A stretch of DNA of 64,000 nucleotides, from contig OX597819.1 of assembly GCA_951406725.2 (NCBI GenBank), positions 65,658,001 to 65,722,000 of the forward strand, in the 5' to 3' direction. Shown piece by piece: positions 56,579 through 56,868 of the stretch; position 1 is the stretch's first letter, and each line of letters starts with the position of its first letter. Below the pieces are notes generated by a model that searched no databases, was not told where the DNA came from, and saw nothing but the letters and a program-made list of their open reading frames with translations. Source of the stretch: Octopus vulgaris (Eukaryota). The translations under genes and the position numbers were made by a program.

Positions 56579-56868
56579 GATATACAATCCAGCCTTCATC
56601 AGGTGTCTTGGGGGAAATTTCGAAACTGGGTTCTCATTCCTAATGTATTTTTCGATGATATTATTGTTATTCAGGTAACTGCCTGGAATCGAACTTAACC
56701 ACTACTCCATATGCCCACGAGCATATTATAATAATAATAATGATGATGATAATAACATTGAAAAATAGGAATGACACCTGATGAAAGCTGGAGAGTATAT
56801 CAGCCGAAACGTTGTGTTAACAACAATCAAATATCCGTCAAATATCCGTCAAATGTAAATAATGTAAA
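56579..56868. mobile_element. Family C: two arms head-to-head, internally deleted
   Basis: Minus arm 56579-56715 (partial hammerhead CCAGCCTTCATCAGGTGTC, B box GGAATCGAAC), centre ATATGCCCACGAGCATAT and plus arm 56730-56868. Confidence 0.85.
56773..56818 (+). ncRNA. Minimal type I hammerhead ribozyme
   Basis: GACAC CTGATGA A AGCTG gagagtatat CAGCC GAAA CGTT GTGTT. Palindromic AACGTT stem III; first pair of stem II mismatched. Confidence 0.65.

Follow-up and report, generated by a model that had tools for sequence, protein, structure and literature searches.

Inverted tRNA-headed copies with hammerhead ends in Octopus vulgaris suggest a SINE carried by Penelope-like elements rather than LINEs

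Introduction

How does a short, non-coding repeat come to stand as two head-to-head copies of itself around one fixed centre? The question is raised by positions 56579-56866 (the focal locus) of a 64,000-nucleotide stretch of the Octopus vulgaris genome (assembly GCA_951406725.2, contig OX597819.1, positions 65,658,001 to 65,722,000 of the forward strand; hereafter the window), where a first-pass annotation had proposed both arms of a palindromic repeat family, with hammerhead ribozyme sequence on both strands. Our analysis of this locus and its relatives suggests a short interspersed element (SINE) that is carried by Penelope-like elements (PLEs) and not by long interspersed elements (LINEs). 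The explanation that we favour, with moderate confidence, is a non-autonomous element headed by an RNA polymerase III (Pol III) promoter, in which a head derived from tRNA-Arg(ACG) is fused to the pseudo-long terminal repeat (pLTR) end of a PLE, comprising a minimal hammerhead and a 31-nt tail. Such an element would be mobilised by a PLE, its cDNA folding back on a 5' hairpin and rebuilding the palindrome.

Results

At the focal locus a minus arm (56579-56708) and a plus arm (56727-56866) meet head to head on either side of a hairpin centre of 18 nt (56709-56726; Table 1). The stretch 56579-56607 is 90% complementary to 56773-56801 over 29 nt, and the local inverted-repeat score of 43, set against a maximum of 28 among 300 base shuffles, bears out the proposal that both arms lie at one locus. 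The minus arm had been described as a hammerhead 5' half, a spacer and a B box; these parts are present, and the arm keeps its A box as well, having lost the anticodon part of the head between the two boxes, while the head of the right arm is gone. The plus arm had been credited with a tail, but ends at 56866 without the 31-nt terminal tail present in other copies. Loss of symmetry by deletion, as the first-pass annotation expected, is supported by microhomology deletions in the right arm and by the partial or complete deletion of the heads.

No target-site duplication (TSD) was found at the focal locus, because its left end is truncated. The junction at 56579 lies inside contigs of three organisms, which differ from the window at 0/179, 6/309 and 3/309 letters, indicating that the truncation is real and older than their split. 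Among the contigs listed, none bridges the centre and right arm and none spans the whole locus. A perfect 14-bp palindrome (56568-56581) shares 3 nt with the truncated left end and may be a scar of fold-back repair. An older low-copy repeat (56390-56575) adjoins that end, and another high-copy repeat lies to the right of the locus (56990-57170).

Four further loci of the same family (A to D) bring the total in the window to five, with 79-89% identity between copies across the longer matches. Copy A supplies the order of a full arm: tRNA-like head, (AAT/AAC)n run, body, hammerhead, TGTAAATAA repeats and tail. The tail measures 31 nt in A, B, C and D, and the plus arms of B and of the focal locus stop at an identical tail-less point. 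Two arms are present at four of the five loci and the same centre at three (A, D and the focal locus), where it folds as a DNA hairpin of -2.7 to -2.9 kcal/mol with its 3' end paired, starting 17 nt before the A box. The arms nowhere follow one another head to tail (0/5 loci), the tandem order by which a retrozyme is recognised. At locus B, the 12-bp direct repeat abuts both arm ends; 10 of 3000 random flank pairs scored equally high anywhere. At locus A, truncated on one side like the focal locus, no TSD was found either. The common centre at three loci, the one target duplication at B and the head-to-head order found elsewhere uphold the palindromic architecture first proposed for this repeat.

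The loop of the centre hairpin is not symmetrical, and its polarity can be compared with the side that bears the tail. In A and D it is the tailed arm that lies downstream of one reading of the loop, and at the focal locus it is the tail-less arm that lies downstream of the opposite reading, giving agreement at all three informative loci, an outcome with a chance of 1 in 4.

Of the 29 positions shared by the two arms of the focal locus, 3 differ; the left arm is one change from copy A and the right arm one from copy D. Separate TSDs or separate subfamilies would have indicated two independent insertions. Neither was observed at the focal locus, where no TSD survives for that comparison and the variants are shared in a mosaic fashion, further ones being common to copies A and D, and to copy A and the right arm of the focal locus.

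Table 1. Features of the focal locus and of the four related loci, in window coordinates
Feature	Position	Strand	Remarks
Locus A: short left arm joined through the centre to a complete right arm	1860..2220	+	A/B boxes 1905-1957, intact hammerhead 2088-2133, 31-nt tail 2190-2220
Locus B: tailed minus end 6390-6470 fused to tail-less plus end 6470-6505	6378..6516	.	12-bp direct repeat 6378-6389/6505-6516, 1 mismatch
Locus C: lone arm end, hammerhead and tail	8345..8513	-	
Locus D: tailed minus arm, centre, plus-head remnant and (AAT)n	9830..10150	.	cut by another repeat family from ~10153
Focal locus: hammerhead 5' half (5' strands of helices I and II, CUGAUGA core, part of loop II)	56579..56607	-	left arm truncated at 56579
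Focal locus: left-arm body and short (AAT/AAC)n run	56608..56671	-	86% identity to copy A over 93 nt
Focal locus: 3' portion of tRNA-like head, B box 56685-56694	56672..56694	-	colinear with tRNA-Arg(ACG) genes via copy A
Focal locus: 5' portion of tRNA-like head, A box 56699-56709	56695..56709	-	anticodon arm and variable region deleted between boxes
Focal locus: centre hairpin, 6-bp stem and 6-nt loop, palindrome axis	56709..56726	.	homologous centres ~1893-1906, 10049-10068
Focal locus: right arm, (AAT)n run and body remnant, head deleted	56727..56772	+	two deletions at 2-nt microhomologies (by eye)
Focal locus: minimal type I hammerhead, loopless helix III	56773..56818	+	G10.1 to A, triplet GUU, predicted site after 56813
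Focal locus: 3' region with TGTAAATAA repeats, stops at tail-less end point	56819..56866	+	end 83 nt after G8

The family is abundant. Summed contig depth over the hammerhead reached ~3 million against 49 on unique flank (run X1), a ratio of ~6x10^4 that is a rough guide and not a copy number; read in this rough way, family abundance is of the order of 10^4-10^5. Family depth drops ~300-fold in the bin after the tail-less end point at 56866. SINEs are defined as short, interspersed and present in more than 100 copies, with a head from a Pol III RNA that contains an internal promoter, transcription by Pol III and reverse transcription by a partner LINE (PMC3531059). Five loci in 64 kb and the very high depth fit the size, dispersal and copy number of that definition. 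Translated copies of the family occur in proteins named Octopus sinensis and O. bimaculoides, and one O. vulgaris annotation supplement contained no family match.

The head resembles a tRNA gene. An A box and B box at tRNA spacing occur once in the window, in copy A, and in none of 200 shuffles. Viral and prokaryotic collections gave 132 matches to the head motif, of which 114 fell within tRNA-Arg(ACG) genes and 18 lay in no called tRNA; the best of these genes align colinearly with the head, the comparators being prokaryotic or viral only, not eukaryotic. Judged from the sequence, a tRNA origin of the head is well supported and its assignment to Arg likely. The boxes and this colinearity correspond to the Pol III-type head with internal promoter of the SINE definition. 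None of the five sense arms tested contains a T4 run; T5 runs are present on the antisense strand. ARAGORN called no tRNA anywhere in the window, and Rfam returned no tRNA or hammerhead match, at the gathering threshold or at E<=10. By eye, a second B-box-like motif is visible in the body just upstream of the hammerhead (56613-56627 on the minus strand, and 2064-2078).

The hammerhead is of the minimal type I form, with a 5-bp helix I, CUGAUGA, a bulged A, a helix II of 5-6 bp and a loopless helix III. It fits the minimal-hammerhead consensus of metazoan PLEs, sharing with them CUGANGA, the bulged base, G10.1-C11.1 and a loopless palindromic helix III (PMC4209133). A descriptor of the minimal hammerhead matched three times in the window, the focal plus arm included, against 0.015 matches expected per shuffled window. 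Copy A is intact, with a helix II pair probability near 1. Hammerhead sequence is indeed found on both strands of the focal locus, the plus-arm layout being complete and the 5' half being present on the minus strand. The plus motif has A at the conserved G10.1 and a GUU triplet (GUC in copy A), and the minus strand lacks the helix II 3' strand, GAAA and the cleavage site. The focal hammerhead is probably dead. Four hammerhead copies showed no covariation, with helices I and II free of two-sided changes. Metazoan PLE minimal hammerheads are reported to cleave poorly, and in that study not as monomers (PMC4209133). The hammerhead motif had no match in a scan of viral contigs; six metagenome matches, all limited to 21-26 nt, were taken as chance.

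The read-through transcript of an intact unit had been expected to fold as a long rod with a ribozyme encoded in each polarity. Folding of the 321-nt read-through of the focal locus agrees with the first part (-87 kcal/mol, z -5.09, 0/100 shuffles as good). The second part fares worse, as the minus strand holds half a ribozyme and helices I and II of the plus one have a pair probability of 0.00 in the read-through. Each strand of the palindrome carries one sense hammerhead and its complement, and any inverted repeat yields such a rod, its ribozyme present on both strands, as a by-product. Imposing helices I and II on the read-through would cost 24.4 kcal/mol, versus 4.5 on the plus arm alone; for the single arms of A, D and the focal plus strand the predicted cost is 3-4.5 kcal/mol, and for C 9.0. 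On these folding models the likelier functional RNA is one arm, transcribed outward from the centre.

The same order of arms is found in translated copies from other assemblies, of which 10 of 129 run antisense then sense and none in reverse, against 0.1 in the control (E<=0.001); relaxing the threshold to E<=0.01 gave 15 against 1 (control 0.6). Most of the ten come from a sister family; by eye, P0002, P0003 and P0049 alone closely resemble the present one. Five of the 15 joints listed, out of 119, run from minus arm to plus arm on one strand, with sides of merely 20-28 nt. The ten joints on opposite strands were left uncounted, since they are expected from ordinary single arms on the deleted reference. 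The sister family, which has a related hammerhead-and-tail module, includes both retrozyme-like tandem units of ~44 codons and head-to-head pairs (P0005-P0007, P0010, P0083, P0110, P0122).

No arm contains an open reading frame (ORF) for a PLE reverse transcriptase with a GIY-YIG endonuclease. The 129 related proteins are all shorter than 370 aa, and Pfam found reverse transcriptase core or GIY-YIG domains in 0 of the 47 scanned. The element is not an autonomous PLE. A frame that stays open across the arm was considered as a remnant of the partner's N-terminus and rejected, as its matches are translated copies and not PLE proteins. In three isoforms of O. sinensis LOC115224785 (P0001, P0130, P0132), modelled as a cysteine-rich membrane protein, the first 36 residues are read from a family copy across the hammerhead; the O. 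vulgaris model P0131 starts differently, and exon capture or a gene-model artefact could account for this.

Elsewhere in the window, copies of another repeat family lie inverted within ~1.6 kb of each other (61482-63089), and at least four other dispersed many-copy families are represented at 1-151, 1307-1491, 1534-1731, 4091-4283, 9406-9752 and 35046-35217. A GC-rich stretch (55790-55910) has no Rfam match at the gathering threshold; we take it to resemble a decayed antisense small-subunit rRNA fragment. The open frames at 24003-24605 (minus strand) and 19488-19880 (plus strand) resemble decayed C-terminal LINE fragments.

Discussion

Much of this architecture is familiar from PLEs. Insertions of endonuclease-bearing PLEs (Penelope/Poseidon, Neptune, Nematis; PMC3846280, PMC8557442, PMC11167929) share with the octopus element inverted head-to-head copies, a junction palindrome, a short TSD (here at locus B), an optional tail of 30-40 bp, a hammerhead ~115-120 nt from the 3' end and decay at microhomologies. 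More specifically, PMC3846280 describes head-to-head inverted pLTRs, palindromes at their junctions, a 31-bp tail that is optional on one inverted pLTR, TSDs of 8-10 bp, microhomology deletions and solo pLTRs acting in trans; the same insert layouts appear in PMC8557442. In an Anolis PLE, two reverse-transcription start sites bracket the tail, and reverse transcription begins 111-118 nt inside an ORF opening directly after G8 (PMC11167929), close to the 114-123 nt that separate G8 from the tail end here. Since PLE insertions agree with the octopus element in their inverted arms and junction palindrome, in tail and minimal hammerhead and in the size of the duplication (that at B), the element would appear to work like a PLE end, and by this comparison its insertion signatures point to a PLE as the probable reverse-transcribing partner. 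Unlike the endonuclease-bearing PLEs, the octopus element has no ORF between its repeats and possesses a tRNA-derived head with A and B boxes; its junction is one fixed hairpin, whereas PLE junctions follow variable 5' truncations.

From the modules, their order, the head-to-head layout around a fixed hairpin, the single target duplication at B and the high abundance, we infer the following course of events. A start ~17 nt upstream of the A box is a plausible one for Pol III. Positioned by the A and B boxes, the polymerase would begin there and place the centre hairpin at the 5' end of the RNA. A PLE protein with reverse transcriptase and GIY-YIG activities, supplied in trans, would nick the target and begin reverse transcription at either of two sites that lie 31 nt from each other. 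The 3' end of the cDNA would then fold back on the hairpin and prime its own copying. The product would be an inverted unit of ~650 bp, each arm bearing a promoter, and the centre would in this way be rebuilt in each cycle. The palindrome would later decay by microhomology deletions, as the focal locus appears to have done. In this scheme the hammerhead would be inherited with the PLE end and would need a dimer or the help of a protein; the hammerhead of the Anolis PLE depends on protein, and insertion in vitro can proceed without it (PMC11167929). Fold-back is the most likely mechanism in our view. More tentatively, the element may be a PLE-partnered SINE that always inserts as a self-renewing palindrome, in which a Pol III start on either arm captures the hairpin, fold-back rebuilds the arms and tens of thousands of octopus copies result.

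Several observations weigh against this account. The centre hairpin is weak (-2.9 kcal/mol), and no intact palindrome or 650-bp unit was seen. Agreement between loop polarity and tail side is weak evidence, coming from three loci only. Translated copies P0002 and P0003 carry tails on both arms, and the rule of one tail is consequently not general. The differences at 3/29 sites between the focal arms, each nearer a different copy, are not predicted by fold-back copying. For PLEs, head-to-head palindromes have been argued to imply self-priming on an antisense template (PMC3846280). Protein-level searches yielded no autonomous PLE partner, their matches being translated copies only. As to the head, the motif pattern itself fixes part of the anticodon, and the tRNA-Arg call is partly built in; the 5' part of the head alone beat shuffles in just 5/114 genes.

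Some of these points would be better explained if each arm came from its own RNA. A dimeric PLE protein would nick and extend both target strands, and two full-length cDNAs would anneal through self-complementary 3' hexamers, thereby fixing the junction. We consider this unlikely, though worth serious attention. In vitro, the PLE protein of Anolis, a predicted dimer, cuts both strands and extends them (PMC11167929), and the divergent focal arms and the copies tailed at both ends also speak for two templates. Loop polarity, however, should then be random with respect to the tail, yet it agrees at all three loci; furthermore, given the mosaic sharing of variants, the differences between the arms may be independent decay.

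A more conventional origin, which we judge improbable, is a SINE of the usual LINE-mobilised kind or a DNA-level fold-back element, with the two-armed loci arising by independent insertions or DNA repair. The lack of a TSD at the focal locus and at A, the single arm at C and the failure of protein searches to find a PLE partner would all be accommodated. It is opposed by the identical centre at three loci, the single TSD at B, the 10:0 orientation bias and the PLE-type hammerhead and tail, and the unequal ends at B are unlike terminal inverted repeats. Least credible of all is a viroid- or retrozyme-like rod RNA, a whole-palindrome read-through cut by a ribozyme in each polarity and perhaps circularised: the read-through folds well and an intact unit would have one hammerhead per strand, but a single hammerhead per strand cannot release a unit-length monomer, antisense T5 runs would halt Pol III read-through, metazoan retrozymes are tandem (PMC7229834; bioRxiv 10.64898/2026.07.22.740005), and we rejected it as the leading explanation with the minus hammerhead half missing and the plus one mutated and sequestered in the rod at the high folding cost given above.

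Returning to the fold-back of a PLE-carried SINE, its components have precedents. Inverted PLE ends with hammerheads are already known, as are Pol III elements with hammerheads in schistosomes (PMC6765202). Minimal hammerheads on opposite strands, 100-700 bp apart, were noted in Schistosoma mansoni, where the available text describes no link to a tRNA head or a fixed centre (PMC4209133). The Schistosoma elements SM-alpha and Sj-alpha likewise combine a Pol III promoter and a hammerhead in a short non-coding retroelement; they are tandem and cleaved to monomers, and their promoter ends up 3' of the cut, whereas the octopus unit is inverted and its promoter central (PMC6765202). Metazoan non-LTR retrozymes are also non-coding repeats with type I hammerheads, proposed to be non-autonomous PLE derivatives, but form head-to-tail arrays that give rise to circular RNA, with no tRNA head or inverted unit in the descriptions available (PMC7229834; bioRxiv 10.64898/2026.07.22.740005). 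Our literature search, which did not extend to Repbase, Dfam or most subscription journals, found no described element that joins a tRNA head to a PLE end and has a fixed palindromic centre.

Octopus SINEs are themselves not new. Ohshima and Okada reportedly described three in 1994 (OR1, OR2 and OK), of which two are said to derive from tRNA-Arg and one to contain an (AAC)n run. That description is not known to mention a hammerhead, a PLE tail or a palindromic unit, and we assume about an even chance that the present family is one of the three. OR2 has been classed as a CORE-SINE (PMC4758252).

SINEs are defined as passengers of LINEs, and a high-copy, tRNA-headed element carried by PLEs would, if true, extend the class. 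On the question of how PLEs make their inverted ends and tails, this family, with its fixed junction, marked loop polarity and very many copies, allows fold-back and the joining of two templates to be told apart from one genome assembly. Furthermore, as Pol III fixes both the strand and the 5' end of the RNA, a sense template could, if our account is true, give rise to PLE inverted repeats, which PMC3846280 had left undecided. Finally, long palindromes at such abundance would be expected to generate deletions and double-stranded RNA in the genomes of octopuses.
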